Positions 6,083 through 50,429 of a stretch of 64,000 nt of DNA are shown piece after piece; position 1 is the first letter of the stretch; each line of letters starts with the position of its first letter. Source of the stretch: a virus (taxonomy: Duplodnaviria > Heunggongvirae > Uroviricota > Caudoviricetes); IMG/VR virus record IMGVR_UViG_3300031555_002005; one strand, given 5' to 3'. The notes below the pieces were generated by a model. It saw nothing but the letters and a program-made list of their open reading frames with translations, was not told the DNA's origin and did not search any database. The position numbers were made by a program, and so were the translations under genes.

Positions 6083-6108
6083 AAATGACGATTTGGTGAG
6101 GTAATAAA

Positions 6109-6309: not shown

Positions 6310-6340
6310 AAGAGTGAGTGATTTTAAGTGAGGCAAATAT

Positions 6341-12071: not shown

Positions 12072-12944
12072 ATGGAGGAAATTAATAATGGCGTTTTAAC
12101 AATACAAAAAATTTCAAATGAAAAACAAAATTGGTGTGTTTATTTACATACAAACAAAATAAATGGGAAGAAATATGTTGGTATCACTGGCCAAAATCCA
12201 GAAGATAGATGGAGAAGAGATGGTAAAGGATACAGAACTCAAAAGTATTTTTGGAGAGCAATTCAGAAATATGGATGGAACAACTTTAAACATGAAGTTG
12301 TTTTATATAACGAAACTTTTAAATACGCATGTGCCGTAGAAAAATGTTTAATAAAGCATTATAAATCTAATGATCCAAGGTATGGTTATAATCTTACTGA
12401 TGGTGGCGAAGGCGTTTCTGGTAGAACTCCATGGAATTATGGAATACCAATGTCTGACGAAATGAAAGAAATAATACGGAAAGCAAATACTGGGAGAAAA
12501 ATATCCGAAGAAACACGTAAAAAATTAATTAATGCAAAAAAGGGTAAGCCTCCCAATAACGCAGGGCGTCCAATGTCAGACGAAACAAAAAGAAAATTGT
12601 CAATGTCGCTTATTGGACGAGTGTTTGATGATGAGACAAAACAAAAAATTAGCAATTCCAAAAAAGGAAAATACACAGGCGTAGATAGCTCTAGACATCA
12701 CCCAATTTATTGCGTTGAATTAAATGAAATTTTTTGGGGTGCAAAGGCTGTGAAAGATAAGTATGGTTTTACCACATGTAATATTGGAGCATGTTGTAGA
12801 GGAGAGCGAAATTATGCCAATAAACATCCAGACACCGGAGAGAAGCTTCATTGGATCTATTGTGATGATGCAATAAAAAATGGATATATTACATCATTTC
12901 AACTTGATAATTACTATAAAGGATTAATGGACAAAGGAGATTAA
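12072..12944 (+). CDS. GIY-YIG homing endonuclease with NUMOD-like repeats
   Basis: WCVYLHTN..KKYVGIT..RW..GYNLTDGGEG; three repeats of M/ISDETKxKL. Confidence 0.85.
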   Translation: MEEINNGVLTIQKISNEKQNWCVYLHTNKINGKKYVGITGQNPEDRWRRDGKGYRTQKYFWRAIQKYGWNNFKHEVVLYNETFKYACAVEKCLIKHYKSNDPRYGYNLTDGGEGVSGRTPWNYGIPMSDEMKEIIRKANTGRKISEETRKKLINAKKGKPPNNAGRPMSDETKRKLSMSLIGRVFDDETKQKISNSKKGKYTGVDSSRHHPIYCVELNEIFWGAKAVKDKYGFTTCNIGACCRGERNYANKHPDTGEKLHWIYCDDAIKNGYITSFQLDNYYKGLMDKGD

Positions 12945-17547: not shown

Positions 17548-18603
17548 TTGGAACAAATCAATAATAATTGGTGTGTTTATATGCACACCAATATCATAAA
17601 TAATAAAAAATATATTGGAATTACGTGCAAGAAGCCAGAACATAGGTGGAATGAAGGCAAAGGATATAAACATAATAGATATTTTTGGAATGCAATTCAA
17701 AAATATGGTTGGGAAAATTTTAAACATGAAATTGTTTCATTTAACCTCTCTCACGATGATGCTTGTAAAATGGAAAAATATTTAATCGCTTATTATAGCT
17801 CGAATAATTCGATATATGGTTATAATCTTACAAGTGGTGGAGATAGTGGGTTTTTACATACTGAAGAAACAAAAGAGAGAATAAGACAAGCTAATAGTGG
17901 TATAAGCAATGCAATGTACGGTATTTCTCCAAAAGAACGAATGGATGAAGATACGTACAAACAATGGCTTTATAAGCAACAGACAAATAAACCACACGGT
18001 GAAGATAATCCACAATATGGTGTATCTCCAAAAGAGAGAATGGATGAAACAACATACCAAGAATGGTTGTACAAACAGAAAAATAACAAGCCAAAAGGGA
18101 AAGACCATCCTATGTATGGAGTGTCGCCACAGGAGCGAATGGACGAAGATACATACAAAAATTGGTTGGAAAAAATGAAAAATCCAGCCAAAAGCATATC
18201 TGTTAAGTGCATTGAAACAGATAAAATATATAAAAGTGCAAGAGAAGCAGAAAGAGAAACAGGAATTGCACACAGTTCAATTGTGAAGTCTTGTATGTCA
18301 GAAGATCATTCGGTAATTGCTGGCGGATTTCATTGGTGTTTGGGCAGCGATAATTTTTCTATGGAGGATCTTGGCTTAGAATATAAAGGTAAGAGGTACA
18401 TTAGGTGCATAGAGACTAATCGTATTTATAAAACAGCCAGAGAAGTTAAGAGAGAAACAGGTTTGGATGACTCATCCATTAACAAATGTTGCAAGGGATA
18501 TTATTTCAAAACAGTTGGTGGCCTTCATTGGGAATATATTTATTTGCTTCCAGAACAATACGAAGAATGGTGCAAAACCAACAACTTAACAACACAAAAT
18601 TAA
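17548..18603 (+). CDS. GIY-YIG homing endonuclease with repeats
   Basis: WCVYMHTN..KKYIGIT..RW..GYNLTSGG; three repeats YGxSPKERMDExTY. Confidence 0.85.
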   Translation: MEQINNNWCVYMHTNIINNKKYIGITCKKPEHRWNEGKGYKHNRYFWNAIQKYGWENFKHEIVSFNLSHDDACKMEKYLIAYYSSNNSIYGYNLTSGGDSGFLHTEETKERIRQANSGISNAMYGISPKERMDEDTYKQWLYKQQTNKPHGEDNPQYGVSPKERMDETTYQEWLYKQKNNKPKGKDHPMYGVSPQERMDEDTYKNWLEKMKNPAKSISVKCIETDKIYKSAREAERETGIAHSSIVKSCMSEDHSVIAGGFHWCLGSDNFSMEDLGLEYKGKRYIRCIETNRIYKTAREVKRETGLDDSSINKCCKGYYFKTVGGLHWEYIYLLPEQYEEWCKTNNLTTQN

Positions 18604-19726: not shown

Positions 19727-20254
19727 ATGAACCTAACAAAAGTAAGTAAATATATTAGTTTAATTTTGCGCCATAAGCCAGAAACAATTGGCATCAGCCT
19801 TGATGAGCATGGCTGGGCCAATGTAAAGGATCTTATTGATGGCGTAAATAAAACTCACAAGCTAGATATGAAAATGCTTGAAGAGATTGTAGCAACAGAT
19901 GATAAGCAGCGCTATTCTTTCAATGAAGATAAGACTATGATTCGTGCCAATCAGGGGCATTCTATTGATGTAGACGTGGAACTTGAAGAAGCTGTGCCTC
20001 CTGAGATGCTTTGGCATGGAACTGGTGTTAAATACATGAAGAGCATTGATACAGAGGGGCTTATTCCTAAGTCCAGATTGTATGTGCATTTGTCTACTGA
20101 TCCTAATACGGCAATGGAGGTCGGTAAGAGACATGGTGCACCTATGATTTACTGCATTGATGCGCTAAGAATGCATGAAGATGGATATAAGTTTTACAAA
20201 TCCAAGAACGGTGTGTGGTTAACTAAACATGTGCCTGCGGAGTATTTTAGGTAA
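19727..20254 (+). CDS. kptA: RNA 2'-phosphotransferase Tpt1/KptA
   Basis: Near full-length collinearity with KptA as I recall it: LRHKPE..GI.LD..GWA, FNED..IRANQGHS, WHGT, YVHLS, NGVWLT. Confidence 0.9.
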   Translation: MNLTKVSKYISLILRHKPETIGISLDEHGWANVKDLIDGVNKTHKLDMKMLEEIVATDDKQRYSFNEDKTMIRANQGHSIDVDVELEEAVPPEMLWHGTGVKYMKSIDTEGLIPKSRLYVHLSTDPNTAMEVGKRHGAPMIYCIDALRMHEDGYKFYKSKNGVWLTKHVPAEYFR

Positions 20255-20714: not shown

Positions 20715-21509
20715 ATGCCCAAATTTTTTGTAAGTTCTGATATTCATAGTGCATATACTCCGTGGATGAAGGCATTAAAAGAAGCGGGTTTTGATGAAAA
20801 CAATCCTAGTCACAAAATTGTCGTATGCGGAGATTTGTTCGATAGACTGGATGAATCTATTCAGGTGTACGATTTTGTTAAGGACATGCTTGAAAAAGAT
20901 AAGTTAATTTACGTAAAAGGAAATCACGAAAGTCTAATGGAAGAATGCCTTGAAAGAGGATACCCTGGAAGGCATGATTGGTCAAATGGTACGGCAAAAT
21001 CTATTATTGACCTCGTTCCCCATGCAGAGAATTTTTATGATGGTTGCGCCGTCGTACGTGAAAAAATGAAATCTTTGTGGGGCAAGACTGTCAATTATTT
21101 TGAGACTAAGAATTATATTTTTGTACATGGCTGGATCCCGGTTATTTGCAAGGATAATTTGCCTAGCTATTATACTAGAAATAGAAAGTTTGAATTTAAC
21201 CCAGAGTGGCGTCATGCGCACTTTTCTGAGTGGGAACAGGCTAGATGGTTAAACGGTATGGATATGGCCAGAAAAGGCTTTGTGGAGCCTGAGAAGACTA
21301 TTGTATGCGGACACTGGCATTGCAGCTATGGTCATATGATGGATGATATGGCTAAGAATGGCCCATTTGATTGTATTGATGAATTTGGAGAAACTGCAAT
21401 TTGGGAACCTTATTATGGAAATGGTATAATTGCAATTGATCGCTGCACTGCACATACTGGAGAGGTTAATGTTCTTGTCATTGAGGATGAACTGTTGGAG
21501 GAATTATGA
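20715..21509 (+). CDS. calcineurin-like metallophosphoesterase
   Basis: SDIHS, GDLFDR, GNHE, GHWH motifs. Confidence 0.85.
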   Translation: MPKFFVSSDIHSAYTPWMKALKEAGFDENNPSHKIVVCGDLFDRLDESIQVYDFVKDMLEKDKLIYVKGNHESLMEECLERGYPGRHDWSNGTAKSIIDLVPHAENFYDGCAVVREKMKSLWGKTVNYFETKNYIFVHGWIPVICKDNLPSYYTRNRKFEFNPEWRHAHFSEWEQARWLNGMDMARKGFVEPEKTIVCGHWHCSYGHMMDDMAKNGPFDCIDEFGETAIWEPYYGNGIIAIDRCTAHTGEVNVLVIEDELLEEL

Positions 21510-22857: not shown

Positions 22858-22983
22858 GACGGTGTAGCTCAGTTGGAAGAGCAATAGCCTTTGTCAGATG
22901 CAGGCTTGCACTAATTCAGTTCGATTCTGAAGTTTGGCACCATAAGCTATGGGTCGAGAGTTCGAGCCTCTCCACCGTCACCA
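22858..22983 (+). tRNA. interrupted tRNA: Lys(TTT) after removal of 50-nt nested insert (alternative register Gln TTG)
   Basis: acceptor gacggtg/caccgtc, D arm, anticodon stem atagc/gctat enclosing cttt+50 nt+taa, T arm gagag-ttcgagc-ctctc, CCA. Confidence 0.75.
22893..22942 (+). ncRNA. nested mini tRNA-like element (acceptor + T arm + ACCA)
   Basis: gtcagat/gtttggc 7-bp helix (3 G-U), ttcag-ttcgatt-ctgaa T arm, ends ACCA. Confidence 0.6.
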
Positions 22984-23450: not shown

Positions 23451-23604
23451 ATCCCAGTAGCTCAGCTGGATAGAGCAACGGTCTTCGGGGAGTTCGTTAA
23501 AAGGTAAGATACTTTAGGATAAAACCTAAGGAGATTACAGTTCGAGTCTGTTGCTCCCCACCATAAACCGTAGGTCGGGGGTTCGAGTCCCTCCTGGGAT
23601 ACCA
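23451..23604 (+). tRNA. interrupted tRNA: Arg(TCT) after removal of 77-nt nested insert (alternative register Arg TCG)
   Basis: acceptor atcccag/ctgggat, anticodon stem acggt/accgt enclosing cttc+77 nt+taa, T arm ggggg-ttcgagt-ccctc, CCA. Confidence 0.75.
23487..23563 (+). ncRNA. nested full-length tRNA-like element with 6-nt 'anticodon' loop
   Basis: ggggagt/gctcccc acceptor, tttagg-ataaaa-cctaag arm, acag-ttcgagt-ctgt T arm, ends ACCA. Confidence 0.6.
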
Positions 23605-23610
23605 AAATAT

Positions 23611-23745
23611 CGGGAACAGGTGGAATGGTATACACATCGGAACCATAACTGAGTTTTGATAAAAACTTGCCAACAGCAAATACGTGGACGTAAAATCCGA
23701 CGCTTTTGCAAGCATCCTTGGTTCGAATCCAAGGGTTCCCGACCA
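23611..23745 (+). tRNA. tRNA-like gene with ACAGCAA-module insert in anticodon-arm position (anticodon uncertain, possibly CAT)
   Basis: acceptor cgggaac/gttcccg, T arm ccttg-gttcgaatc-caagg, CCA; stem tcgga/tccga encloses hairpin agtttt-gata-aaaact + ACAGCAA (23673..23679). Confidence 0.55.
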
Positions 23746-25214: not shown

Positions 25215-25700
25215 ATGAATATTGAACAAGTAATTCTTTATAAAAGAATCGAAAAAGTACTTAAGAATTACCTAATAAATGACTTGGGTGATTCACAAAT
25301 GAAGAAAAAGGAAAGCTATTGTTTGAATTGTGGAGTTTCTATACCAAATAGAAATAAATATTGCTCAAACAAATGCCAACTAGATTTCCAATATAAAGAG
25401 TATATACAGAGATGGAAAAATGGGCTTGAAGATGGTATGAGAGGTGAATATCTTATATCAGTACACATTAGAAAATATTTAATGGAAAAGTTTGATAACA
25501 AATGCTCAAAATGTGGATGGGGAGAAATAAATCCTTATACCAAAAATGTACCACTAGAAGTCCATCATAAAGATGGAGATTATACCAATAATTCAGAAGA
25601 CAATCTTGACTTACTATGTCCAAATTGTCACTCATTAACAGAAACATATAAAGCTGCAAATAAAGGCAATGGAAGAAAAGATCGTAAAAAATACACATAA
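25215..25700 (+). CDS. HNH homing endonuclease
   Basis: EVHHKDGDYTNN..LDLLCPNCHSL; start may be internal ATG 25299. Confidence 0.85.
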   Translation: MNIEQVILYKRIEKVLKNYLINDLGDSQMKKKESYCLNCGVSIPNRNKYCSNKCQLDFQYKEYIQRWKNGLEDGMRGEYLISVHIRKYLMEKFDNKCSKCGWGEINPYTKNVPLEVHHKDGDYTNNSEDNLDLLCPNCHSLTETYKAANKGNGRKDRKKYT

Positions 25701-27322: not shown

Positions 27323-27922
27323 TTGACATTGGCGAAACATGTAACTACAGAAGAAATAGCAACAAGAATAAAAAATACTTTTAAACAAAATGTTTCATTA
27401 GTTGGAGAATATAAGAATAAACGATCAAAATTAACATTACATTGTAATGATTGTGGACATGAATGGGAATCTCCATCAAGTAGTGTTATATATGGAGATA
27501 GACACGAGTGTCCTCGGTGTGGAAGACATGCAAAACAATTGAATGAATTTCAATGTACAAACTGTGGACAAGTTGTGTATCGTAAAGATTCAGACATTAA
27601 AAAGAATCAAACAGGTAATTTCTTTTGTTCTCAACAATGTGGAAATGAGTTTAAAAATCGAATACGAAAAGAAAGTGGAGAATGGGATAACTCGTTAAGC
27701 TATAGACGGAAAGCATTTGAAACTTATGAACATTTATGTTGTGTATGCGGTTGGAATGAAGATGAAAGAATTTTAGAAGTTCATCATAAAGATGAAGATC
27801 GTACAAACAATATGGTAAATAATCTATGTATTCTATGTCCTACATGTCATAGAAAAATAACATTAGGATATTATGAATTAACAGATGATTTCAAGCTAGT
27901 TGATAAAAATCAAAAGAATTAA
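27323..27922 (+). CDS. HNH homing endonuclease with zinc ribbons
   Basis: EVHHKDEDRTNN..CILCPTCHRKI; several CxxC pairs. Confidence 0.85.
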   Translation: MTLAKHVTTEEIATRIKNTFKQNVSLVGEYKNKRSKLTLHCNDCGHEWESPSSSVIYGDRHECPRCGRHAKQLNEFQCTNCGQVVYRKDSDIKKNQTGNFFCSQQCGNEFKNRIRKESGEWDNSLSYRRKAFETYEHLCCVCGWNEDERILEVHHKDEDRTNNMVNNLCILCPTCHRKITLGYYELTDDFKLVDKNQKN

Positions 27923-28212: not shown

Positions 28213-28240
28213 TTGACAAATCAGAATTATATGATATAAT
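28213..28240 (+). promoter_or_regulatory. sigma70-type promoter for the ACAGCAA RNA array
   Basis: ccccTTGACAaat-N16-TATAAT. Confidence 0.8.
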
Positions 28241-28274: not shown

Positions 28275-28275
28275 A

Positions 28276-28369
28276 AGGCGCACACAGCAAATTTACTATA
28301 TGGTTAAAATTTTTTATGTTTGTGTTAAAAAATGAGAAGGTTCAAATCCTTTAAAAATTTCATGCGCCT
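28276..28369 (+). ncRNA. ACAGCAA-module RNA unit A
   Basis: outer helix aggcgca/tgcgcct, 5' bulge cACAGCaa (28284..28290), inner helix aaattt/aaattt, cargo with T-arm-like aagg-ttcaaat-cctt. Confidence 0.55.
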
Positions 28370-28379
28370 TGACAAAAAA

Positions 28380-28442
28380 AGACACTAACAGCAACTTTAT
28401 TAACTATACAATTTGGGCTTGTAAATATTGTTAATAGTGTCT
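28380..28442 (+). ncRNA. ACAGCAA-module RNA unit B
   Basis: outer helix agacact/agtgtct, bulge aACAGCAA (28388..28394), inner helix attaac/gttaat. Confidence 0.55.
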
Positions 28443-28449
28443 TGAATAT

Positions 28450-28561
28450 GGGAACGTCCGGTGGCAGTAAATAAGTGCATGGAGTGGGCAGCACACACAG
28501 CAATTTTACTTAACAATTTCTGGAAAAAATTGACTCCTTGGTTCAACTCCGAGGGTTCCCA
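28450..28561 (+). ncRNA. tRNA-like RNA with permuted ACAGCAA module (unit C)
   Basis: acceptor-like gggaac/gttccc, T arm cttgg-ttcaact-ccgag; hairpin gtgc-N12-gcac + ACAGCAA (28497..28503); agtaaa/tttact. Confidence 0.5.
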
Positions 28562-28582
28562 AAAATCCCACTAACTTAATAT

Positions 28583-28712
28583 GCGGAAGTAGCTCAGCTG
28601 GGAGAGCAATAGTATTTATTTAAAAATGTGTTTAGATTAACACTAACAGCAATTTTTATTTAAAGAAGAAGTTGGGGACTATGGGTCGTAGGTTCGAGCC
28701 CTACCTTCCGCA
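28583..28712 (+). tRNA. tRNA-like gene with permuted ACAGCAA module in anticodon loop (unit D; anticodon unassigned)
   Basis: acceptor gcggaag/cttccgc, D and T arms canonical, stem atagt/actat encloses 64 nt: taaaaa-[gtgtt-tagatt-aacac]-tAACAGCAA-ttttta. Confidence 0.6.
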
Positions 28713-28724
28713 TCAACTAAATAT

Positions 28725-28852
28725 GCCAGAGTAGCTCAGTTGGTAGAGCACGTATATATCAACCAACGTGGTATGAAAATTTCACGCACAGCAATTTTAA
28801 TGATTCTTGCCTTTTAAGCACGTTGTCGTGGGTTCGAGTCCCATCTCTGGCA
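28725..28852 (+). tRNA. tRNA-like gene with ACAGCAA module (unit E; anticodon unassigned)
   Basis: acceptor gccagag/ctctggc, D/T arms canonical; insert has hairpin cgtg-N12-cacg + cACAGCAA (28788..28794); flanked by direct repeat agcacgt. Confidence 0.55.
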
Positions 28853-28862
28853 AACTTTATAT

Positions 28863-28981
28863 GGCGCAATGGTGTAATGGTAGCACAACGTAATAATTGA
28901 GGTTTGTTAAAATCTTAAACTGCAATTTTACAATGCATGATCACGCCGTAGGTTGAAGTTCGATTCTTCATTGCGTCTCCA
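28863..28981 (+). tRNA. tRNA-like gene with variant module ACTGCAA (unit F; anticodon unassigned)
   Basis: acceptor ggcgcaa/ttgcgtc, T arm tgaag-ttcgatt-cttca, CCA; hairpin gttt-N11-aaac + TGCAATTTTA. Confidence 0.5.
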
Positions 28982-28998
28982 AATTAACAATTAAATAA

Positions 28999-29118
28999 AG
29001 GCACATACAGCAATTTTAAATTCTGAAGCAGCCATTTTGCTTTGTAGTATAACTGGTTAGTACGCAGGACTGATAATCCTGAAATGCTGGTTCGAGTCCA
29101 GTCTTTAAAAATGTGCCT
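28999..29118 (+). ncRNA. ACAGCAA-module RNA unit G carrying an internal tRNA-like domain
   Basis: outer aggcacat/atgtgcct, bulge ACAGCAA (29007..29013), inner ttttaaa/tttaaaa; cargo has arm cagga-ctGATaa-tcctg and T arm ctgg-ttcgagt-ccag. Confidence 0.6.
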
Positions 29119-29129
29119 TGCAATTAAAA

Positions 29130-29235
29130 GAGAGACGAACAGCAAATTGATTGAATTAAAGAAGATAGAAAACTTATTTACTAATTATTGTTGTTTTATT
29201 TATGTATTAGATTATTTATCACTTTTAAGTCTCTC
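29130..29235 (+). ncRNA. ACAGCAA-module RNA unit H
   Basis: outer gagagac/gtctctc, bulge gAACAGCAA (29139..29145), AT-rich cargo. Confidence 0.5.
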
Positions 29236-29250
29236 GAATAAATAAAATCT

Positions 29251-29313
29251 CCAAAGACGCTAACAGCAATGTACGACTTGACTGCAAATCAATAATCGTA
29301 AAATGCGTCTTGG
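29251..29313 (+). ncRNA. ACAGCAA-module RNA unit I
   Basis: outer ccaaagacgc/gcgtcttgg, bulge tAACAGCAA (29263..29269), inner tacga/tcgta. Confidence 0.55.
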
Positions 29314-29353: not shown

Positions 29354-30907
29354 ATGGAATTTATGAGTGCAGTTAGACAGACTCTCAATAATGAGTACAA
29401 TGTGTCTATCACTGAGAACGGCGCAGTTGGTTATAGAACCACTGGCAAGGAGCTGCTTGACCTGAACTTTGCAGTAGCATCTCTTCGTAAGATGACCGAT
29501 GCAGAAGTCGCAAAGAGATTCAAGAAGGCTTTTTGTGAAGATCAGGTTCTCGCAATGAAGTGGCTGTTCTACGCAAGAGACGTTCGTGGTGGTTTGGGTG
29601 AGCGTAGACTGTTCAGAGTTGTTCTGGCAGATCTGGTACAGTCCAATCCTGAAATGGTTATTCCTGTCATGAATCTGATTCCTGAGTATGGTCGCTACGA
29701 TGACCTGTGGTGTCTGTTAGATGACAAGGAAGCAGCTAATGTGATTTATCAGATTGTTGATAATCAGCTGAAGCGTGACTGGGAAAACATGGCTTCAAAG
29801 AAGCCTATTTCTATTCTGGCAAAGTGGATGCCTTCTATCAATGCATCTTCTGCTAAGACCAAGGAATACGGAAAGAAGCTGTGCAAGGCTCTGAAGATGA
29901 CTGAGCGTGAATACCGCAAGGCTCTGAGCAAGCTTCGTGCATATCTGGATGTTGTTGAAGTTAAGATGTCCGATAAGAACTGGTCTGCAATTAAGTATGA
30001 AGCAGTTCCTTCTCGTGCAAATCTGATTTACAACAGCGCATTCCTGAGAAATGACGAAGCAAGACGTAGAGAATATCTTGGCCAGCTTGAAAAGGGCGAG
30101 ACTAAGATTAACGCATCTACTCTGTTCCCTCACGATATTGCTCATAAGTATACTAACAACTCATGGGGTCGTGGTCTAAAGGCAAAGGATGCAACCATTG
30201 AAGCTCTGTGGAAGGCGCTACCTGACACTGTAAATGGCTGTGGTAATACTATTGTTGTTGCTGACGGCTCTGGTAGTATGACTTGCACTGTTGACAATCA
30301 CTCTCGTGTTACTGCACTTGAAGTTGCAAACGCACTGGCAATTTACTTTGCTGAGCACTCTTCTGGTCAGTTCAAGGATAAGTACATTACTTTCTCTGAA
30401 AGACCTCAGTTTGTTGACTTCAGCAATTGTAAGACTCTGCATGACAAGCTACACACTGCACTAATGCATAATGAAGTTGCAAATACTAACATCGAAAAGG
30501 TGTTTGATTTGATTCTGACTTCTGCGGTCAATAACCATATGCATCAGGAAGATCTTCCTCAGAACATCCTGATCATCTCTGATATGGAGTTTGATAGCTG
30601 TGCAACTTCTGGCAATGTTGATCGTTGGAGCTACCGTAACAGACCTACTCAGAAGCTATTCGATGTTATCGCTCAGAAGTACGCAAGAGCAGGTTACAAG
30701 ATGCCTCGTCTGGTATTCTGGAATGTAAACTCTCGCACTGGTACTATTCCTGTAAAGGAAAATGACCTTGGTGTGGCACTGGTCAGCGGTTTCTCTGTAA
30801 ACGTTGCCAAGATGGTCATGAGTGGCAAGACTGATCCTTTCGAGTGTCTGCTTGAAACTCTGAACTCTGAGAGATATGCTCCTGTTGAGGAAGCTTTAAA
30901 TCAGTAA
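29354..30907 (+). CDS. DUF2828 / TROVE(Ro60)-like protein with C-terminal vWA domain
   Basis: N-terminal ITENGAVGYRTTGKELLDLNF signature as I recall for DUF2828; MIDAS-like VVADGSGSM; strong RBS AGGAGG. Confidence 0.75.
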   Translation: MEFMSAVRQTLNNEYNVSITENGAVGYRTTGKELLDLNFAVASLRKMTDAEVAKRFKKAFCEDQVLAMKWLFYARDVRGGLGERRLFRVVLADLVQSNPEMVIPVMNLIPEYGRYDDLWCLLDDKEAANVIYQIVDNQLKRDWENMASKKPISILAKWMPSINASSAKTKEYGKKLCKALKMTEREYRKALSKLRAYLDVVEVKMSDKNWSAIKYEAVPSRANLIYNSAFLRNDEARRREYLGQLEKGETKINASTLFPHDIAHKYTNNSWGRGLKAKDATIEALWKALPDTVNGCGNTIVVADGSGSMTCTVDNHSRVTALEVANALAIYFAEHSSGQFKDKYITFSERPQFVDFSNCKTLHDKLHTALMHNEVANTNIEKVFDLILTSAVNNHMHQEDLPQNILIISDMEFDSCATSGNVDRWSYRNRPTQKLFDVIAQKYARAGYKMPRLVFWNVNSRTGTIPVKENDLGVALVSGFSVNVAKMVMSGKTDPFECLLETLNSERYAPVEEALNQ

Positions 30908-30958
30908 ACTGGTACACGCAAGTGTCTTGTTTAAATAATCCAAAGGAGGACTTTGCCT

Positions 30959-31041: not shown

Positions 31042-31165
31042 AGACATTAACAGCAAACAATAATTACTTGGTTGCGAGGTTAGCTTAGCTGGTCTAAAGC
31101 AATAGATGTGAAAATCTATGATCACTGGTTCGAACCCAGTACCTTGTGTTTAAGTGATAATGTCT
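31042..31165 (+). ncRNA. ACAGCAA-module RNA unit J carrying a tRNA-like domain
   Basis: outer agacatt/aatgtct, bulge aACAGCAA (31049..31056), inner ttactt/aagtga; cargo 31074..31148 cloverleaf-like with 6/8-nt 'anticodon' loop. Confidence 0.6.
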
Positions 31166-31544: not shown

Positions 31545-32465
31545 ATGAGAAAAGGTAGTATTGGCGCAATTCTTCTGGCATTTCTGATCTTTGGTGGACT
31601 GCTTCTATGTCTAGCATGCACAGAAAAGATTCCGACTGGTTATGTTGGTGTTGTTTACAACATGAGCGGTGGCGTAGATGGTGAAGTGCTTTCCCAGGGC
31701 TTCCATATCGTAGCACCCACTAAGAAGGTAACCACTTATTCTGTAGGACTAGAGCAGAGTTATCTGTCTTCTGAAGATGTTGGCGACTCCCCGAAGGATG
31801 AAAGTTTCAACATTCCTACTTCTGATGGTAAGACTGTCCGTGTAAATCTAGAATTCTCTTATCGTTTTGATTCCGAGCGTGTTGCAGAAACCTTTACTAT
31901 GTTTAAGGGTAAGTCTGGTGAAAACATTAAGGAAACCTTTATTAAGCCCAAGGTAATGGCATGGACTCAGGAAGTTTCCGCAAAGTATCCTGTTACAGAC
32001 ATTTTTGGTGACAAGCGTACTGCTATCAATGCAGAGCTAGACATTTATCTGCGTGAAAAGTTTGCACCTTATGGCATTATTATTGACACTGTAAACTTTA
32101 CTGACATTTCTGTTGACAATGAAACTGCCGCAGCAATTCAGAAGAAGGTTAATGCACAGCAGGAACTAGAGCTTGCAAACATTGAAGCAGAAACTGCAAA
32201 GATTCAGGCCCAGAAGGACAAAGAGGTTGCACGTGTTCAGGCAGAAAAGGACAAGGAAGTTGCCGCTATTAAGGCAGAGCAGAAGATTATTGCAGCCGAA
32301 GCAGATGCCGAGGCACTAAGAATTGCATCTGAAGCAGAAGCAGAAGCAAACCGTGAGATCGCAGCTTCTCTGACTCCTCAGCTAATCGAGAAGATTAAGT
32401 ATGAGCAGTGGAATGGTCAGATGCCCAAGGTCACTGGTGGCAGTTCTATTGTAAGTATTGATTAA
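31545..32465 (+). CDS. SPFH / band-7 (prohibitin-HflK-like) membrane protein
   Basis: N-terminal TM, SPFH core then Ala/Glu/Lys-rich coiled coil. Confidence 0.8.
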   Translation: MRKGSIGAILLAFLIFGGLLLCLACTEKIPTGYVGVVYNMSGGVDGEVLSQGFHIVAPTKKVTTYSVGLEQSYLSSEDVGDSPKDESFNIPTSDGKTVRVNLEFSYRFDSERVAETFTMFKGKSGENIKETFIKPKVMAWTQEVSAKYPVTDIFGDKRTAINAELDIYLREKFAPYGIIIDTVNFTDISVDNETAAAIQKKVNAQQELELANIEAETAKIQAQKDKEVARVQAEKDKEVAAIKAEQKIIAAEADAEALRIASEAEAEANREIAASLTPQLIEKIKYEQWNGQMPKVTGGSSIVSID

Positions 32466-40123: not shown

Positions 40124-41509
40124 ATGGCTTATACAGCATTTATTACAAGAATTAAGAATCTGCGTACACACCCTAAGGCGGATCGACTGCAGATGGGTGA
40201 GTGCTTTGGTAACACTGTAATTGTCTCTCTGGAATACGAGGACAACCAGCTTGGCATTTACTTCCCTTCTGATGGACAGATTAGCACTGCATTTGCAGAA
40301 GCAAATAACCTGCTTCGCAAGAAGGATGAAAACGGCAATAACATTGGCGGTTACATGGATCCCGACAAGCGCAACGTCACTGCTATTAAGCTTCGTGGAG
40401 AAAAGTCTGATGGCCTGTTCCTGCCTCTGAAGTCTCTTGAGCCTTTTGGTGACATTACCACTCTGCGTGAGGGTGACCGAATTGATAACTTTAATGGACA
40501 TGAGATTTGCTGCAAGTATGTACCTTTTAAGCGTGAACGTACTGCCGCAGGTGGAGCAGGAAAGCGCATTAAGCGTAGAGCTAAGAGAAGCATTGCACCT
40601 CTGTTTTATGAGCATATGGACACTGAGCAGCTCGCCTACAATCTGGCAGCTTTTAAGCCCGGTGACGAGATTGAAATCACTCTAAAGATGCATGGCACTT
40701 CTCAGCGAACTGCACACCTACCTGTGTTTAAGGACTACAAGCGCACAATCTGGGACAAACTATTCCGTCGTGAAGGTACTCCTGTTTATGATTGGGGTTA
40801 CGTCTCTGGCACTCGTCGTACTGTTCTAGAGAATTTTGAAGGTGGATATTATGGATCTAACGAGTTCCGTGAAGCACATTCTAAGTTCTTTGAGGGCAAG
40901 CTGTGGAAGGGCGAAGAGGTCTACTACGAGGTGGTTGGTTTCACTCATACTGGCGCACCTATTATGTCTACGGCAGACAATAAGAAGCTGAACGACAAGG
41001 AGTTTGTTAAGCAGTATGGAAAGACTACTACTTTCTCTTATGGTTGTGCCCCTGATGGTGTAAATTCCGCAGATGGAGTTATTCCTCAGTCTGATATCTA
41101 CGTTTACCGTATGACAATGACCAATGAAGATGGTGATGTTGTCGAGTACACTCCTGATTTCATGCGCTATCGTTGTGAGCAGATGGGTGTTAAGACTGTC
41201 CCTGTGATGTGGAAGGGCACTATTCCTTACGCAGATTGGCTTGAAGCTAACACGTGGGAAAGCGCAGGGCATTATGCAATTACTCGTGCAGAAAAGTACT
41301 ATGATGGTCCCGACCCTATTGGCAAGACTCATGTCCGTGAAGGCGTTGTAGTTCGTATTCTGAACCGTCCTAAATTCTGTGCATACAAGCATAAGAACTG
41401 GTCTTTCAAGGCTCTTGAAGGAATTGTTAAGGTTGAAGCTGAGGCTCCTGATATGGAAGAAGCCGATGGCATTAATGAGGAAGTGATGACTGATGAATTT
41501 TCACAGTGA
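40124..41509 (+). CDS. ATP-dependent RNA ligase (Rnl2/Rnl5-like, N-terminal OB-like module)
   Basis: Motif I LKMHGTS (KxHG as in T4 Rnl2/DraRnl per memory); N-terminal ~150 aa extra domain. Confidence 0.7.
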   Translation: MAYTAFITRIKNLRTHPKADRLQMGECFGNTVIVSLEYEDNQLGIYFPSDGQISTAFAEANNLLRKKDENGNNIGGYMDPDKRNVTAIKLRGEKSDGLFLPLKSLEPFGDITTLREGDRIDNFNGHEICCKYVPFKRERTAAGGAGKRIKRRAKRSIAPLFYEHMDTEQLAYNLAAFKPGDEIEITLKMHGTSQRTAHLPVFKDYKRTIWDKLFRREGTPVYDWGYVSGTRRTVLENFEGGYYGSNEFREAHSKFFEGKLWKGEEVYYEVVGFTHTGAPIMSTADNKKLNDKEFVKQYGKTTTFSYGCAPDGVNSADGVIPQSDIYVYRMTMTNEDGDVVEYTPDFMRYRCEQMGVKTVPVMWKGTIPYADWLEANTWESAGHYAITRAEKYYDGPDPIGKTHVREGVVVRILNRPKFCAYKHKNWSFKALEGIVKVEAEAPDMEEADGINEEVMTDEFSQ

Positions 41510-42302
41510 TGAATGGATCATGCGGAATGTTCGAGAGCACTACAACGAGGCTCTCGAACACTTCCCCGAAGATAGAATTGTAGGTATCTTTTATCAGGGC
41601 AGCGGTAACTACGGCCTTGACTATGAAGGTTCTGATGTAGACACCAAGCTGATTGTCACGCCAACCTTTGAAGATATTGCAATGAATAAAAAGGCAGTAA
41701 GTACAACTCATATCAGAGAGAATGAAGAGCACATCGATTTTAAGGATATTAGACTCTATATCCAGACTTTCAGAAAGCAAAACTTGAACTTCCTAGAAAT
41801 CCTGTTTACTAAATATGCAATTATCAATCCTATGTATAAAGATGAATGGGATAGACTTGTAAAGGCTCGTGAGAAAATTGCACGCTATGCACCTGTACAG
41901 GCTATTAAGTCTATGAAGGGCATTGCAAAAGAAAAGTATCATGCAATGGAACATCACTATCCTGCACGAATGGCATGGATTGAGAAGTTTTCTTACGATC
42001 CGAAACAACTGCATCATCTACTGAGAGTTAATGAATATATCAGCAGATACATTGACGGCGAATCATATGAAGATTGCTTGATTTCAAAAATGCCAGACTA
42101 TTTACAGTCAGTAAAACTTGGTTTTCACAACCTGGATGATGCTCGCATGATTGCTAATTGGGCTATTGGCTGTATTGATAAAATGTGCGATAAGTATCTA
42201 GAGACTTGTTCAACTGAAGTTGATAAAGATGTTGATGTTCTACTTGATGATGTGCAGTACAACATTATGAAGATTGCTATTAAGAAAGAAATTGGTGATT
42301 AA
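41493..42302 (+). CDS. Pol-beta superfamily nucleotidyltransferase (RNA-ligase-associated type)
   Basis: GSGNYGLDYEGSDVD (GS..DxD NTase signature); overlaps ligase gene end. Confidence 0.7.
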   Translation: MNFHSDEWIMRNVREHYNEALEHFPEDRIVGIFYQGSGNYGLDYEGSDVDTKLIVTPTFEDIAMNKKAVSTTHIRENEEHIDFKDIRLYIQTFRKQNLNFLEILFTKYAIINPMYKDEWDRLVKAREKIARYAPVQAIKSMKGIAKEKYHAMEHHYPARMAWIEKFSYDPKQLHHLLRVNEYISRYIDGESYEDCLISKMPDYLQSVKLGFHNLDDARMIANWAIGCIDKMCDKYLETCSTEVDKDVDVLLDDVQYNIMKIAIKKEIGD

Positions 42303-42303
42303 A

Positions 42304-43200
42304 ATGAACAGACCTAGTTTAATTTTACTTGTCGGAATTCCCGGCTCAGGCAAAACTACATACGCAGAAAAATATATTAAAGAGAATCCCAATACAGTAC
42401 ATCTTTCCTCCGACAAGATTCGTGAAGAACTTTGGGGTAATGAAGCTACTCAGGGCGACAACAACAAAGTGTTTTCTCTGATGCAGTCTAGAGCAATTGA
42501 AGCACTGAATAACGGACAGTCTGTGGTATATGACGCTACGAACATTACAAGAAAAGACAGATCTTACATTATCACTCTTTGCCCTAAGTTTGCTAAGATT
42601 GAGTGCCATATTATTTGGGCACCTATTGAGACTTGCATCGAGAGAGACGCTGCCAGAGAACGCACTGTTGGCAAGGAAGTCATTGATAGAATGCTTAAGC
42701 GATTCCAGGCACCTTATTATGATGAAGGGTTTGATGGTATCTATATTCGTTATTCTGATGACAATTTTAATGCAAAAGAATACAGTAAAAAGATAGTTAT
42801 GAACATGGATATCCCTCATGATAACCCTCATCACACTTTGAATATTTTAGATCATTGTGCTGAAGCAGGATCATATTTTTATGAAAGAGGTCAGTATGAC
42901 GAAGTGTGGGTGGCAGCTATGTATCATGACATAGGAAAACCATACGTAAAAGCATTTGTTGATAGCAAAGGTAATCCTTGTGAGAATGCTCATTACTACC
43001 AGCATCAATGTTTGGGTTCATATATGTATTATGGAATGACTAGTGAAATTGGTGGTACTAGTGACACATGGGTAAAAATTGCTTGGCTGATTTCCACACA
43101 TATGGATCCTTATCTAAATACGAAATATTACAATAGACTTCCTGCTTATCTAAAGAAACAGGTAGATTTGCTTCACGAGGCGGACAGGAATGCACATTAA
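42304..43200 (+). CDS. polynucleotide kinase (P-loop) fused to HD phosphohydrolase (Pnkp-like)
   Basis: Start ATG 42304; GIPGSGKTT; C-terminal MYHDIGKP ... HMDP. Confidence 0.75.
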   Translation: MNRPSLILLVGIPGSGKTTYAEKYIKENPNTVHLSSDKIREELWGNEATQGDNNKVFSLMQSRAIEALNNGQSVVYDATNITRKDRSYIITLCPKFAKIECHIIWAPIETCIERDAARERTVGKEVIDRMLKRFQAPYYDEGFDGIYIRYSDDNFNAKEYSKKIVMNMDIPHDNPHHTLNILDHCAEAGSYFYERGQYDEVWVAAMYHDIGKPYVKAFVDSKGNPCENAHYYQHQCLGSYMYYGMTSEIGGTSDTWVKIAWLISTHMDPYLNTKYYNRLPAYLKKQVDLLHEADRNAH

Positions 43201-43260: not shown

Positions 43261-44049
43261 ATGCCAAATAAAATTGATAAAAAAACAGAAAAAGATATAA
43301 TTGATTTATATAATAATGGATACGGGACTATGGAAATATCACAAAAATGTGAAATTCATAGAGCAACTGTTCAAAGAATTTTAAAAAGAAATAATATAGA
43401 TTTACGTAAACGTACACCTGTACATTATGACATTCATTTCTTTGACGAATACAATGAAAATAGTTGTTATTGGGCAGGGTTTATTGCAGCAGATGGATAT
43501 GTGAGATCCGACAGAGCAGCTGTAACAATACATTTAGCAAGTGTAGATTATGAGCATTTGTTAAAACTTGCCAAATTAACCAATTATGAAGGGAACGTCA
43601 AACTCAATAAGAATGATTGTTATATTACATTTGCTGGCAAATGGTTTCAAGATGCTCTAGATAAAAATTTTAATATACGTCCAAATAAAACATTTGATAT
43701 TACAATTCCAGACAAAATTCCAGAAGATATGGTTAAACATTTTATTCGTGGTTACTTTGATGGCGATGGTAGTGTAACTCATACAAACAATTATTTACGC
43801 ATTAATTTCACTTCTGGATCTGAAACTATGCTTCAACAGATTATGAATTTTGTATATAACAATAATATATTAGTTCGAAATAATACTGGAATGCCACCAA
43901 TCCATCAATATGTAATTAACTATTCTTGTAGTGTTGCATATAAAATTCTAGACATATTATATGGATGTTCATCAGACTTAACAAGACTGGATAGAAAATA
44001 TCAATTATATTTAAGTTATAAAAAATCTAAAAGTCCATTGGCAAATTAA
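43261..44049 (+). CDS. LAGLIDADG homing endonuclease with N-terminal HTH
   Basis: GFIAADGYV and GYFDGDGSV motifs; free-standing between Pnkp-like and Thg1-like genes. Confidence 0.85.
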   Translation: MPNKIDKKTEKDIIDLYNNGYGTMEISQKCEIHRATVQRILKRNNIDLRKRTPVHYDIHFFDEYNENSCYWAGFIAADGYVRSDRAAVTIHLASVDYEHLLKLAKLTNYEGNVKLNKNDCYITFAGKWFQDALDKNFNIRPNKTFDITIPDKIPEDMVKHFIRGYFDGDGSVTHTNNYLRINFTSGSETMLQQIMNFVYNNNILVRNNTGMPPIHQYVINYSCSVAYKILDILYGCSSDLTRLDRKYQLYLSYKKSKSPLAN

Positions 44050-44069
44050 TTTGATTGGAGAATAATATT

Positions 44070-44903
44070 ATGGATACAAGTGAACTAGCAAAAAGAATGA
44101 AAGACTATGAGTCTGTGCCAAAAGCAAGGCTGATGAGGCGTTGTCCCGTGGCATGTCGTATTGACGGAAAGGCTCACCATAGCTTTACAAAAGGATTCAA
44201 AAGACCGTTTGACGAAGTTTATATTAAGTCGATGCAGAAAACAGCAAAATATTTATGTGAAAATGTACAAGGTGTTGTGCTGTCATATCAGCAGTCAGAT
44301 GAAATTACTTTGATTTTAATTGACTATAAAGAATTCAACACATCTCCATATTTTGACTACGAAATTCAAAAGCTGTGTTCAATTCTAGCTTCTATGGCAA
44401 CTATGGCGTTCAATAAGTTTTTTGCAAACGAATGTTGTCAGTGGTTTGAAAATAACATTGATTGGAGTGACCTAGACGTTGTCGCAGCAGATGAAGATAT
44501 CAAGAAGTTGTTTAATGCCTATACCAAGGCTTGTGAAAAAGGTGCAATGTTCGATGCTAGAGTATTTAATATCCCTAAGGAAGAAGTCATGAACCTTCTA
44601 TATTGGAGACAGTTAGATGCTACTAGAAACAGCATTCAAATGGTTGGGCAGGCAAACTTCTCTCATAATCAGCTTCACGGTAAGAACTGTAGCGATATTC
44701 AGGATATGTTAATGTTCGAAAAGGGCATCAACTGGAACGATTATCCGACTCACCTAAAGCGTGGCAGCTGTTGTATTAAGAAACCTTTCAAGATTAATGA
44801 GGGCACCGAGCAGGAAACAGTTCGTAACAAATGGGTAATTGACACTGAGATACCTATTTTCACGCAAGATAAAGATTATGTAAATAAATTGATTTTTATT
44901 TAA
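44070..44903 (+). CDS. tRNA-His guanylyltransferase-like protein (Thg1/TLP, 3'-5' polymerase)
   Basis: ACRIDGKAHHSFTKGFKRPFDE, SYQQSDEITL; start ATG 44070 (track 44055 TTG). Confidence 0.85.
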   Translation: MDTSELAKRMKDYESVPKARLMRRCPVACRIDGKAHHSFTKGFKRPFDEVYIKSMQKTAKYLCENVQGVVLSYQQSDEITLILIDYKEFNTSPYFDYEIQKLCSILASMATMAFNKFFANECCQWFENNIDWSDLDVVAADEDIKKLFNAYTKACEKGAMFDARVFNIPKEEVMNLLYWRQLDATRNSIQMVGQANFSHNQLHGKNCSDIQDMLMFEKGINWNDYPTHLKRGSCCIKKPFKINEGTEQETVRNKWVIDTEIPIFTQDKDYVNKLIFI

Positions 44904-48767: not shown

Positions 48768-49937
48768 ATGATTCATTCTTATCAGAAACCTTTGAGTGGC
48801 AAAAGTGTTGGTGTAGTATTTGGCTCTTTTGCCCCTCTACACCAAGGTCATCTGGACTGCATTATGAGGGCAAAGAAAGAAAATGATGGCGGCGCAATTG
48901 TAATCGTTTGCGGATTCGACGGTGACAAGGGTGGTAAAATGATGCCACTAAAGCGAAGATACAGATATGTTAGAGAGTTCTTCTCTGATGATGATTTGGT
49001 TGCTGTATATGCAATTGATGACGGTGAGATTGGCGCAGAGCCTTATCCTAATGGTTGGGAAAAGTGGCTCGACGAGTTTTGGAATATTTGGGAAAAGGCC
49101 ACTGAGCTATCTTGGAAAGAAACAGATGGTCCAGAAGGTTTTGAAACTAGTGTTAGTTTGGAACGTCCTAAGCGCCACTGGTATGCAGGTGACCCTAATT
49201 ATGTGAGTGACCTCGTTGAACGTGGCGAAGAAGCAACTCTGCTTGACCGTGTAGCAGACAATCCTATTTGTGCAACAATGATTCGTCAGAATCCTATTAA
49301 GCACTGGGATAAAATTACTTTCCCCTTCCGTCGTCTGTTTAGCCACAACATTCTAATTTGTGGCACAGCATCTGAAGGTAAATCAACTCTTACAACGGAT
49401 CTTGGTAAGTATTTCAATGCGCCTTATAGCTATGAATGGGCACGTGACTATATGAGAGAAAGTTGCGTTATTGACTGGGAACTAGATGGCGCAGATTATA
49501 TGGCTTTCCTTGAAGGCCAGTACAACCTAAACAAGCAGATGATTAATTCTCCTGGCAATCATGGCATTTTCTTTGCTGATTCTGACTCTATGGTAACTAG
49601 AATGTATGCAGAGTATTATGCTCAGGATGAAACTTGTGCGCTTACTCAAGAAGAATTTGAACGAGTAGCAGTAATGGCCGATGAAATTACACGTAAATCT
49701 CGTTGGGACAAGATCTTCTTACTGGCACCGCATGGTGTATTTGTTGACGACCATGAAAGATATATGGCTCATTCTGGCATGAAGGAACGGCAAGAGCTAT
49801 TTGAAATCCTATGCAGAAACATTAAGGAATCTGGAAACTGGGACAAGGTTACAATTCTAACTGGAAACTATTACGAAAATTTCATGGCAATTGTAAGTTA
49901 TGTAAAAGATCGAATTGAGAAAGGCATGGCTGATTAA
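48768..49937 (+). CDS. nadR: NadR-type bifunctional NMN adenylyltransferase / ribosylnicotinamide kinase
   Basis: GVVFGSFAPLHQGHLDCIMRA (HxGH) plus P-loop CGTASEGKST. Confidence 0.85.
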   Translation: MIHSYQKPLSGKSVGVVFGSFAPLHQGHLDCIMRAKKENDGGAIVIVCGFDGDKGGKMMPLKRRYRYVREFFSDDDLVAVYAIDDGEIGAEPYPNGWEKWLDEFWNIWEKATELSWKETDGPEGFETSVSLERPKRHWYAGDPNYVSDLVERGEEATLLDRVADNPICATMIRQNPIKHWDKITFPFRRLFSHNILICGTASEGKSTLTTDLGKYFNAPYSYEWARDYMRESCVIDWELDGADYMAFLEGQYNLNKQMINSPGNHGIFFADSDSMVTRMYAEYYAQDETCALTQEEFERVAVMADEITRKSRWDKIFLLAPHGVFVDDHERYMAHSGMKERQELFEILCRNIKESGNWDKVTILTGNYYENFMAIVSYVKDRIEKGMAD

Positions 49938-50429
49938 ATGGCTAAAATGTATTTAATGTGCGGTTGCAGTGGCGCAGGAAAGACAACATTTGCAAAAGAG
50001 TTTGCCAAGAAAAATAGCCTTAAGTATTTAGGTATTGATGATTTCTACGCACTAGTCAATGGTGATGAATGTATACACACTAATTCATTTGAAGTGTGGA
50101 TTGAATTTTATAAAGCAATTCATGAAGCAGAGATTAATAATCTTGACGTAGTTATTGATACAAATGCAATTACTCGTTCTCATCGTGAACAGTTTATTGA
50201 TTGGTTTCCAACTTTTGAACATCATCTAATTTACATTAAAGCTACACATGACCTAAGAAAGCAGAACAATAAATCTCGTCGCAGACAAGTTCCAGACGAT
50301 GTAATGGATAAAATGCGTGACCAATTTCAAATACCTTTGTTGAGTGAAAAGTTTAAAACAATCACAATAATTAGAAACGTTGATAATAATTTTAGAGTAC
50401 CTATTGTATTAAAAGGAGAAGCAAAATGA
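49938..50429 (+). CDS. P-loop kinase/ATPase (AAA_33-like)
   Basis: GCSGAGKTTFA Walker A. Confidence 0.6.
   Translation: MAKMYLMCGCSGAGKTTFAKEFAKKNSLKYLGIDDFYALVNGDECIHTNSFEVWIEFYKAIHEAEINNLDVVIDTNAITRSHREQFIDWFPTFEHHLIYIKATHDLRKQNNKSRRRQVPDDVMDKMRDQFQIPLLSEKFKTITIIRNVDNNFRVPIVLKGEAK

Follow-up and report, generated by a model that had tools for sequence, protein, structure and literature searches.

A DUF2828-family protein with a Ro60-like fold and a flanking array of tRNA-mimic RNA units: a candidate phage Ro/Y-RNA-type ribonucleoprotein

The locus described here lies in a stretch of 64,000 nucleotides (nt), hereafter the window, of the Caudoviricetes record IMGVR_UViG_3300031555_002005 of IMG/VR. 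It consists of an open reading frame (ORF) for a 517-residue protein and of ten co-oriented units, A to J, of a small structured RNA that carries the heptamer ACAGCAA, with a further unit, K, in an outlying position (Table 1). The ORF begins with ATG, 8 nt downstream of an AGGAGG ribosome-binding site. It follows directly on the array; unit J, tRNA-Met, tRNA-Leu and an SPFH gene come after it, and the window has a large tRNA cluster. A megablast search of the locus DNA against GenBank phages returned no close relative. The locus is probably best explained by a divergent Ro60-type protein with about ten co-transcribed cognate RNAs that mimic tRNA. A preliminary description, made from the sequence alone, had proposed a candidate phage ribonucleoprotein (RNP) of the Ro-Y type; its reading is supported by the fold, the tRNA-like units and the same-strand co-occurrence reported below. 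Its account of the layout (an ORF directly behind an ACAGCAA array, then unit J, two tRNAs and an SPFH gene) was recovered in full.

The ORF product has matches above the gathering score to the Pfam families DUF2828 (PF11443, E 2.5e-35) and DUF7788 (PF25043, E 3.4e-45) and a weak match to VWA_2, and phrog_850, annotated "RNA-binding protein" in PHROGs, covers residues 4–509 (E 1.2e-141). Both Pfam families are matched by all members of a family alignment of 70 diverse relatives (41–59% identity). The N-terminus carries SITENGAVGYRTTGKELLDLNF (TENGAVGY...ELLDL), in which T20-E21-N22-G23 are at least 90% conserved across the alignment, and the MIDAS-type peptide reads VVADGSGSM. Residues D304, S306, S308, T378 and D410 are invariant and constitute a complete MIDAS motif. 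The TENGA..T..ELLDL signature, the assignment to DUF2828 and the DGSGSM motif of the preliminary description are therefore all present. The identical protein is recorded from three metagenome contigs, and its relatives number thousands: an exhaustive search gave 6955 clusters at 50% identity, and homologues occur in 706 GenBank phage records.

The AlphaFold2 model of the ORF product has a predicted local distance difference test score of 93.4 and a predicted template-modelling score of 0.92. A Foldseek search with this model returned only four matches with E<0.001; all were Ro60/TROVE structures, which ranked first and aligned over the full length. Sequence identity in the structural alignments is 13–17%. 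The alignment with Ro60 includes the N-terminal ring and is not confined to the vWA part. At the sequence level, the top four chains retrieved from the PDB with the family profile were likewise Ro60/TROVE, weakly (E 0.016–0.37) and via the MIDAS region only. Ro60 came into view there because the family profile was used, the single ORF sequence having given noise only. The Pfam model vWA_Ro60 was matched weakly by 16 of the 70 family members. The protein is predicted to be a divergent structural homologue of Ro60, composed of a helical-repeat ring and a vWA/MIDAS domain; this assignment is strong at the level of the modelled fold, and the sequence link is weak. Of the TROVE relationship put forward in the preliminary description, the structural half holds, as the comparison with the Ro60 ring illustrates; the half that concerns sequence does not, Pfam returning DUF2828 and, weakly, VWA_2, but not TROVE.

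Eight exact copies of ACAGCAA are found on the + strand between 28284 and 29269, and one more at 31050. The two strands of the window together hold 22 copies against 13.7 expected, so the excess is local to the array. Matches to R1, a covariance model of the short unit trained only on metagenomic (gut-phage) units, are confined to 28275–29311 in the whole window. No terminator-like site was found between the promoter upstream of unit A and the ORF, and a comparable TTGACA...TATACT precedes the first unit of the related locus L001. Because a consensus promoter lies upstream and no terminator intervenes, array and gene are probably co-transcribed. Repeated CTTGACA sequences were also read as promoters and rejected, since a matching -10 element occurs only at the 28213 site. 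Unit I ends 43 nt before the start codon and may therefore lie in the mRNA leader. Seven bases past the stop codon, a mini-hairpin, ACAC-GCAA-GTGT followed by CTTG, looks like a collapsed unit in which the stem halves are joined by the last four bases of the motif.

Table 1. Features of the locus and of the window. Coordinates are positions in the window; R1 scores refer to the covariance model defined in the text.
Feature	Coordinates	Strand	Structure or assignment	Supporting observations
Protein gene (ORF)	29354..30907	+	517-residue protein, predicted Ro60 fold; DUF2828 + DUF7788 family (PHROG 850)	Pfam, PHROGs, alignment, model
ORF domains			Helical repeat ring, about residues 1-297; C-terminal vWA with MIDAS D304-x-S306-x-S308...T378...D410	
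Promoter	28213..28240	+	Consensus sigma-70 type (TTGACA, 16 nt, TG-TATAAT; 12/12), just 5' of unit A	Sequence match
Unit A	28275..28370	+	Closing stem AAGGCGCA/TGCGCCTT; ACAGCAA at 28284; T-arm-like hairpin AAGGTTCAAATCCTT	R1 35.6 bits, E 2.5e-6, outside training set; weak Rfam tRNA match 28308-28360
Unit B	28379..28443	+	9-bp closing stem AAGACACTA/TAGTGTCTT; ACAGCAA at 28388; inner 5-bp hairpin with 7-nt anticodon-like loop UUUGGGC (UGG)	Minimum free energy -16.5 kcal/mol, z -3.3; R1 48.9 bits, training-set member
Unit C	28483..28567	+	Closing stem AGTGGG/CCCACT; ACAGCAA at 28497; T arm CCTTGGTTCAACTCCGAGG	Homologous unit in L001; R1 weak, 14.1 bits
Unit D	28583..28712	+	Full tRNA body; 57-61-nt insert on 5' side of anticodon loop: hairpin GTGTT..AACAC, TA, ACAGCAA at 28646	Rfam tRNA 51.1 bits with 61-nt insertion; also ARAGORN intron mode
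Unit E	28725..28852	+	tRNA body; 55-nt insert in 5' strand of anticodon stem: hairpin, GC, ACAGCAA at 28788	Rfam tRNA 47.9 bits; ARAGORN -i: Lys(ttt) with 55-nt intron
Unit F	28864..28981	+	tRNA-like body; insert with variant ACTGCAA at 28919-28925	Same insert in locus L004
Unit G	28998..29119	+	9-bp closing stem AAGGCACAT/ATGTGCCTT; ACAGCAA at 29007; tRNA-Ile(GAU)-like body inside	Rfam tRNA 48.8 bits at 29041-29110, acceptor truncated; R1 23 bits
Unit H	29130..29235	+	Closing stem GAGAGAC/GTCTCTC; ACAGCAA at 29139	Fold; R1 18.5 bits, outside training set
Unit I	29254..29311	+	Closing stem AAGACGC/GCGTCTT; ACAGCAA at 29263; inner hairpin TTGA-CTGCAAA-TCAA, anticodon-loop mimic (GCA)	Minimum free energy z -2.9; R1 43.8 bits, training member
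Mini-hairpin	30914-30929		ACAC-GCAA-GTGT, then CTTG	
Unit J	31042..31165	+	8-bp closing stem AGACATTA/TAATGTCT; ACAGCAA at 31050; encloses tRNA-like body 31073-31149 with abnormal anticodon loop	
SPFH gene	31545-32465			
Unit K	23610..23745	+	Outlier in tRNA cluster 5.6 kb upstream; tRNA-like (GGGAAC.../...GGTTCCC-G-ACCA, T arm) containing CTTGC-CA-ACAGCAA (23673)...GCAAG	Read by eye; no R1 score
Tpt1/KptA	19727-20254		2'-Phosphotransferase	E 3e-48
RNA ligase	40124-41509			Weak match, E 1e-4
Kinase-HD	42274-43200		P-loop kinase + HD phosphohydrolase fusion	
Thg1-like	44055-44903		3'-5' polymerase	
tRNA-Met(CAU)-like gene	22858-22983		50-nt insert between U33 and anticodon	
tRNA-Arg(UCG)-like gene	23451-23604		77-nt tRNA-like insert in anticodon loop	ARAGORN tRNA-??? 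at 23487-23563
Calcineurin-like phosphoesterase	20715-21509			
Reverse transcriptase	1208-2467			RVT_1, E 9e-22
Tyrosine integrase	9034-10008			
MrpR-like	10091-11005		Recombinase N-terminal domain	
Putative homing endonucleases	12072-12944, 17548-18603, 25215-25700, 43261-44049		Two GIY-YIG/NUMOD3, one HNH, one LAGLIDADG	
Zinc-ribbon/CapR-domain protein	27323-27922			No HNH match
NadR-like protein; PnuC-type transporter	48768-49937 and 50426-51118		Cytidylyltransferase-like + AAA_28; nicotinamide mononucleotide transporter	

The module common to the units is a helix (AAGRCRC/GYGYCUU), two variable bases and ACAGCAA, usually continued by UUUUA. Its consensus over 277 distinct instances, drawn from the window and from 80 viral loci, is A-G-R-C-R-C-N-N-ACAGCAA-U-U-U-U-A. 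It occurs in two topologies. In A, B, C, G, H, I and J the helix is a closing stem, 5'-AAGRCRCNN ... NNGYGYCUU-3', and ACAGCAA opens the internal loop; in D, E and F a local hairpin and the ACAGCAA module lie inside the anticodon arm of an otherwise complete tRNA body. The second modules are tRNA-derived: anticodon-stem-loop mimics in B and I, a T arm in A and C, and tRNA-like bodies in G and J. The flanking RNAs are thus tRNA-like, as had been proposed, and combine this character with a Y-RNA-like terminal 5'/3' stem and an internal loop that opens with a conserved motif. Unit E has a close counterpart in L001 (3540–3660), with nearly identical acceptor, D and T arms and the anticodon loop CUUGUAA (UGU) in place of CUUUUAA (UUU); read by eye, the split anticodon stem is kept by a compensatory change of U29-A41 to A29-U41. 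The anticodon triplet seems free to change on this scaffold. Removal of 55 nt from unit E leaves a canonical tRNA-Lys(UUU), the one clear outcome of an ARAGORN deletion scan that was otherwise noisy, many deletions yielding "a tRNA".

The unbiased measure of pairing is the count of complementary partners of at least 8 bp located 20–120 nt downstream, which were found for 52% of instances compared with 8% in shuffled sequences and 13% with a shifted anchor. In an alignment of 87 short units the closing stem is paired at 89% (68% in shuffles), the two R/Y stem positions have A-U about as often as G-C, and 199 double-change cells were counted against 58 in shuffles, a value reached in 0 of 500 shuffles; this covariation is partly circular because the alignment was selected for complementarity, and it is the partner count that serves as the fair test. 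Strict anticodon-loop-like hairpins (RR-CU-NNN-AA-YY) are enriched about 20-fold within 53 nt after the motif, display 19 different triplets and mostly begin 10–21 nt after it. The strict pattern replaced an initial hairpin-loop statistic that was contaminated by T loops (with "anticodons" CGA and CAA). Free-standing hairpins without surrounding tRNA exons account for 191 of 276 units. Single-sequence folding of the long units is weakly informative (z -0.6 to -2.1; +0.8 for unit J), and the case for structure therefore rests on the comparative data.

When compared with the Rfam tRNA model RF00005, units D, E, G and J score 47.9–52.7 bits (29-bit mark), with anticodon-arm insertions of 61–66 nt in D and E, loss of most of the acceptor stem in G and an aberrant anticodon loop in J. 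No Rfam 15 family other than tRNA was matched by the array at either the gathering or the E-value threshold.

The motif accompanies the gene well beyond the window. In 77 of the 80 viral loci, whose proteins are 39–81% identical, it lies on the strand of the gene, either directly downstream or no more than 1.2 kb upstream, and the opposite strand is nearly devoid of it. In genome loci, mostly metagenome-assembled genomes of gut Clostridia, it adjoins the gene on the same strand in 65 of 80. Since only 14 of the genome loci have any tRNA gene, it is the protein gene and not the tRNA cluster that the RNA accompanies. Related loci typically have a unit at -60 to -130 from the start codon, and in several of the loci that lack the exact heptamer, variant units (ACAGCAG, UCAGCAA or ACCGCAA) lie just upstream of the gene. 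The adjacency of gene and RNA across deep divergence is strong but not absolute, and the co-occurrence that the preliminary description had suggested surveying was borne out. Like the architecture of the RNAs, this conserved same-strand linkage is directly observed. In the reverse direction, a search with AAGACACNNACAGCAAT located the gene within 3.3 kb in 22 of 120 matching viral stretches, always on the same strand (22/22); this proportion is diluted, as chance matches or short flanks account for many of the others.

In four cultured phages outside its training set, R1 found units beside the homologue and none elsewhere in those loci. Three units lie directly upstream of the homologue in Listeria phage LP-048, one lies beside it in Enterococcus phage VRE9_1, and two lie directly downstream of it (gp53, annotated "Ro-like RNA binding protein") in mycobacteriophage LeBron. 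The Felixounavirus UAB_Phi87 has three weaker matches downstream (17.8, 13.6 and 12.6 bits; E 0.033–0.69). The sequences themselves bear out the architecture: Felixounavirus units read CAGAAGACCnnnU-NCAGCAA-...-nnnGGUCUGG, and four NCAGCAA units lie in the tRNA array. LeBron and the Felixounavirus have one permuted YrlA-like unit each with an (A/G)CAGCAA module; that of LeBron scores 39.8 bits over the full length of the Rfam YrlA model, below threshold, and that of the Felixounavirus was identified by eye. In the LP-048 locus (L087) an RtcB-like RNA ligase gene (5352–6518) lies 1.3 kb downstream of the DUF2828 gene, which echoes the bacterial rsr-yrlA-rtcBA arrangement.

Elsewhere in the window, the RNA ligase, kinase-HD, Thg1-like and Tpt1 genes of the preliminary description were all located, the ligase by a weak match. 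These four constitute a full RNA end-healing and sealing set, and their presence in one phage region beside interrupted tRNA genes is unusual. The insert in the tRNA-Arg(UCG)-like gene has a GGGGAG/CTCCCC acceptor, a T arm and an ACCA end; if this element (23487–23563) were excised by RNase P and RNase Z, the outer halves would be left with 3'-OH and 5'-P ends, open to joining by an RNA ligase. That of the tRNA-Met(CAU)-like gene contains a T-arm-like hairpin and a CACCA end, and this nested insert differs in type from the ACAGCAA inserts. Several of the homing-endonuclease-type genes are interspersed among the tRNA genes. The reverse transcriptase lies near the left end of the window, with the tyrosine integrase and the MrpR-like gene near it. 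The NadR-like and PnuC-type genes lie near each other and may represent a phage NAD+ salvage pair that could counter NAD-depleting defences.

Protein and flanking RNAs most likely form a previously undescribed Ro/Y-RNA-like particle. In the mechanism that we propose, the roughly ten small RNAs transcribed with the gene from the promoter in front of unit A would be the cognate partners of the protein, which would recognise the helix-plus-ACAGCAA junction. Ro60 recognises a conserved stem and bulge of Y RNAs. Binding at the junction would set the protein beside the second module. Depending on the unit, this is a mimic of the anticodon stem-loop whose triplet varies, a T arm, a tRNA without its acceptor or an entire tRNA; in the last case the shared module would form an additional branch on the anticodon arm. 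The RNPs so formed may act on tRNA-directed processes during infection. The likeliest roles would be those of decoys or shields against host defences that target tRNA or RNA, or of repair scaffolds, in which case the RNPs would bring the phage RNA ligase, kinase-HD, Thg1-like protein and Tpt1 to damaged tRNA; regulation of a host nuclease is a further possible role. The tie to tRNA-directed conflict is suggested by the tRNA cluster, by the RNA ligase, kinase-HD, Thg1-like and Tpt1 genes, and by RtcB near the Listeria homologue. Physical binding, stoichiometry and biological role are what we infer here. More tentatively, the stem plus ACAGCAA could be a portable tag for loading onto the Ro ring, grafted by phages onto anticodon-arm mimics and even entire tRNAs, which would either assemble a protein-bound, diversifiable array of anticodon decoys or shields against tRNA- or RNA-directed host immunity, or mark insert-bearing pre-tRNAs for protein-assisted cut-and-ligate maturation with the RNA ligase, kinase-HD and Tpt1.

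Several observations weigh against the particle, beside the partial circularity of the covariation noted above. The association of protein and RNA is drawn from comparative linkage, and the units are known as DNA sequence. TROVE (PF05731) is absent at E<=1 from the ORF product and the 70 family members when Pfam sequence profiles are used, a profile–profile comparison not having been made. The canonical Ro-binding motif, GNCGAAN0-1G in bacteria and GGUCCGA in animals (PMC4201824), is not found in the RNAs, where the conserved element is AGRCRC-NN-ACAGCAA. YrlA (RF02553) is unmatched in the window, with a best score of 25.1 bits against a gathering threshold of 69 bits; that match runs from the T arm of unit D into the D arm of unit E, and was rejected as a tandem-tRNA artefact, a known type of false positive. 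Bas63 gp130, a protein considered below, is very probably an ortholog of the ORF product, an assignment made from position and description. There are also clear arrays without the gene, such as the four units at 2997–3600 (minus strand) of locus L233; these precede a gene for a calcineurin-like phosphoesterase, and the surrounding 14 kb contain no DUF2828 gene. Either the RNAs need not adjoin the gene, therefore, or they have another partner. The window also encodes a calcineurin-like phosphoesterase.

A different account would make the ACAGCAA modules introns or mobile mini-elements that can be removed from the anticodon arms of tRNAs. The Ro-like protein would then be a splicing or processing cofactor or have no role, and excision and rejoining by the RNA ligase, kinase-HD and Tpt1 would yield functional tRNA-Lys and tRNA-Val, among others. 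Units D, E and F are indeed full tRNA bodies interrupted beside the anticodon loop, unit E without its insert is a canonical tRNA, the window lacks an uninterrupted tRNA-Lys, tRNA-Val or tRNA-Arg, and two further tRNA genes carry inserts of another kind. Tpt1, which removes the 2'-phosphate at ligated tRNA splice junctions, is encoded together with the ligase and kinase-HD. The compensatory change in the L001 homologue of unit E, which keeps the split anticodon stem, also fits; that stem can, however, form in the unspliced RNA, leaving the module as an extra arm, and the exchange of UUU for UGU on the same body would be odd for a decoding tRNA. Most units, moreover, stand free of tRNA exons, and the linkage to DUF2828 persists at loci that have no tRNA genes. 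The array has no match to Rfam ribozymes or introns, the insert sites differ (28/29 vs 31/32), and no bulge-helix-bulge was seen by eye, no systematic search having been made. Removable inserts are thus an unlikely explanation of the array.

The position of one unit 60–130 nt upstream of the start codon in most loci, unit I included, and the apparent sharing of a promoter without an intervening terminator would also suit units that are cis-acting transcript signals, such as RNase processing sites, stabilisers or an autoregulatory leader, the protein binding its own leader only or no RNA at all. Up to eight to ten units per locus, many of them downstream or within tRNA arrays, exceed the needs of a leader; each unit carries a different tRNA-derived module, and in LeBron and the Felixounavirus the units lie after the gene. 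We give this account little credence, and autoregulation through unit I would be compatible with a Ro-like particle rather than replace it. Finally, the co-location might be a coincidence, the hairpins being selfish intergenic repeats or promoter/operator sequences and the vWA protein having a non-RNA role, for example as an assembly co-chaperone; phage vWA proteins with non-RNA roles are known (PMC7824862), and some arrays lie away from the gene. This is very improbable in view of the strict strand specificity, the retention of the motif beside homologues that are 32–40% identical, and a linkage that spans phages of Actinobacteria, Firmicutes, Proteobacteria and gut Clostridia. Compensatory changes link stem halves 40–250 nt apart, which indicates an RNA and not a site in DNA; the alignment with Ro60 takes in the N-terminal ring as well as the vWA domain; and the neighbouring genes that were scanned include no MoxR-type ATPase.

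Ro60-type RNPs with tRNA-mimic Y RNAs are already known in bacteria and some phages, and the Ro-like nature of the DUF2828 family has been hinted at in annotations and one preprint. A literature search on DUF2828, ACAGCAA and Ro-like or tRNA-like RNAs found nothing on an ACAGCAA RNA class. Within the Rfam release and literature searched, the RNA class, its distinct recognition motif, the multi-unit arrays and the grafting of the module onto the anticodon arms of whole tRNA bodies appear to be new. Members of the family occur in well-studied and therapeutic phages, where their annotation goes no further than "RNA-binding protein", "vWFA protein", DUF2828 or hypothetical; an RNA partner defined by sequence and structure turns this vague annotation into a testable RNP. 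Should the portable tag be real, either variant would represent a new mode of RNA-based counter-defence or of tRNA maturation, spanning hundreds of cultured phages (Felix O1-like, Listeria P100-like, Enterococcus, Staphylococcus, Campylobacter and mycobacteriophage cluster L). Plant studies and a tardigrade genome paper mention DUF2828 proteins as well, and the RNA module could help in looking for partners there.

Bacterial Ro60 (Rsr) and its YrlA/Yrn RNAs, including the phage versions of Chen et al. 2014 (PMC4201824), have in common with the present locus the ring-plus-vWA fold, partner RNAs within a few kb on the same strand and RNA repair genes associated with the locus. The RNAs likewise share a terminal 5'/3' stem, an internal loop opening with a short conserved motif and a tRNA-like second module (PMC4201824, PMC12135203). 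By contrast, the protein described here belongs to DUF2828/DUF7788 and lacks a Pfam TROVE match, and the motif is (AAGRCRC)NN-ACAGCAA instead of GNCGAAN0-1G in a window without a YrlA match. There are up to about ten units per locus rather than one or two, and these are mostly anticodon-arm mimics or tRNA bodies of normal topology, whereas YrlA has a permuted T-arm/acceptor/D-arm domain. Another parallel is phiRo60 of Thermus phage phiLo, a phage Ro60-fold protein with its RNAs, Yrl1 and Yrl2, encoded immediately upstream (PMC12135203; PDB 9l5y, 9kop). It attenuates host PNPase in vitro, and it differs in being a recognisable TROVE protein whose RNAs use a CGAA motif (PMC12135203).

The Felixounavirus homologue, present in 244 of 244 Felixounavirus records of the collection, is 34% identical to the ORF product and occupies the same position as gp130 of the Felixounavirus Bas63. 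We know of nothing comparable to the PNPase attenuation by phiRo60 in the DUF2828 family. Bas63 gp130 is described as Ro60-like, is encoded directly upstream of tRNA genes and counters the Ppl defence (PhageMaP preprint, 10.1101/2024.10.10.617714), which is the only clue to function. The Ppl phenotype was reported for Bas63 alone, and partner RNAs were not identified in the preprint (10.1101/2024.10.10.617714); the four NCAGCAA units of the Felixounavirus tRNA array are candidate partners, which supplies concrete candidate RNAs for the reported anti-Ppl activity. Vertebrate Ro60 with its Y RNAs and TEP1 (vault RNA, telomerase RNA) resemble the present protein as MIDAS-bearing vWA rings with small structured RNA partners, and differ from it in sequence (13–17% identity for Ro60/TROVE) and in the RNA sequence recognised, the system described here being viral and built on multi-copy RNA arrays. 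The Ro/Y-RNA principle, a ring with modular tRNA-mimic RNAs, would in this way extend to a second lineage of proteins, one that recognises its RNAs by another code.

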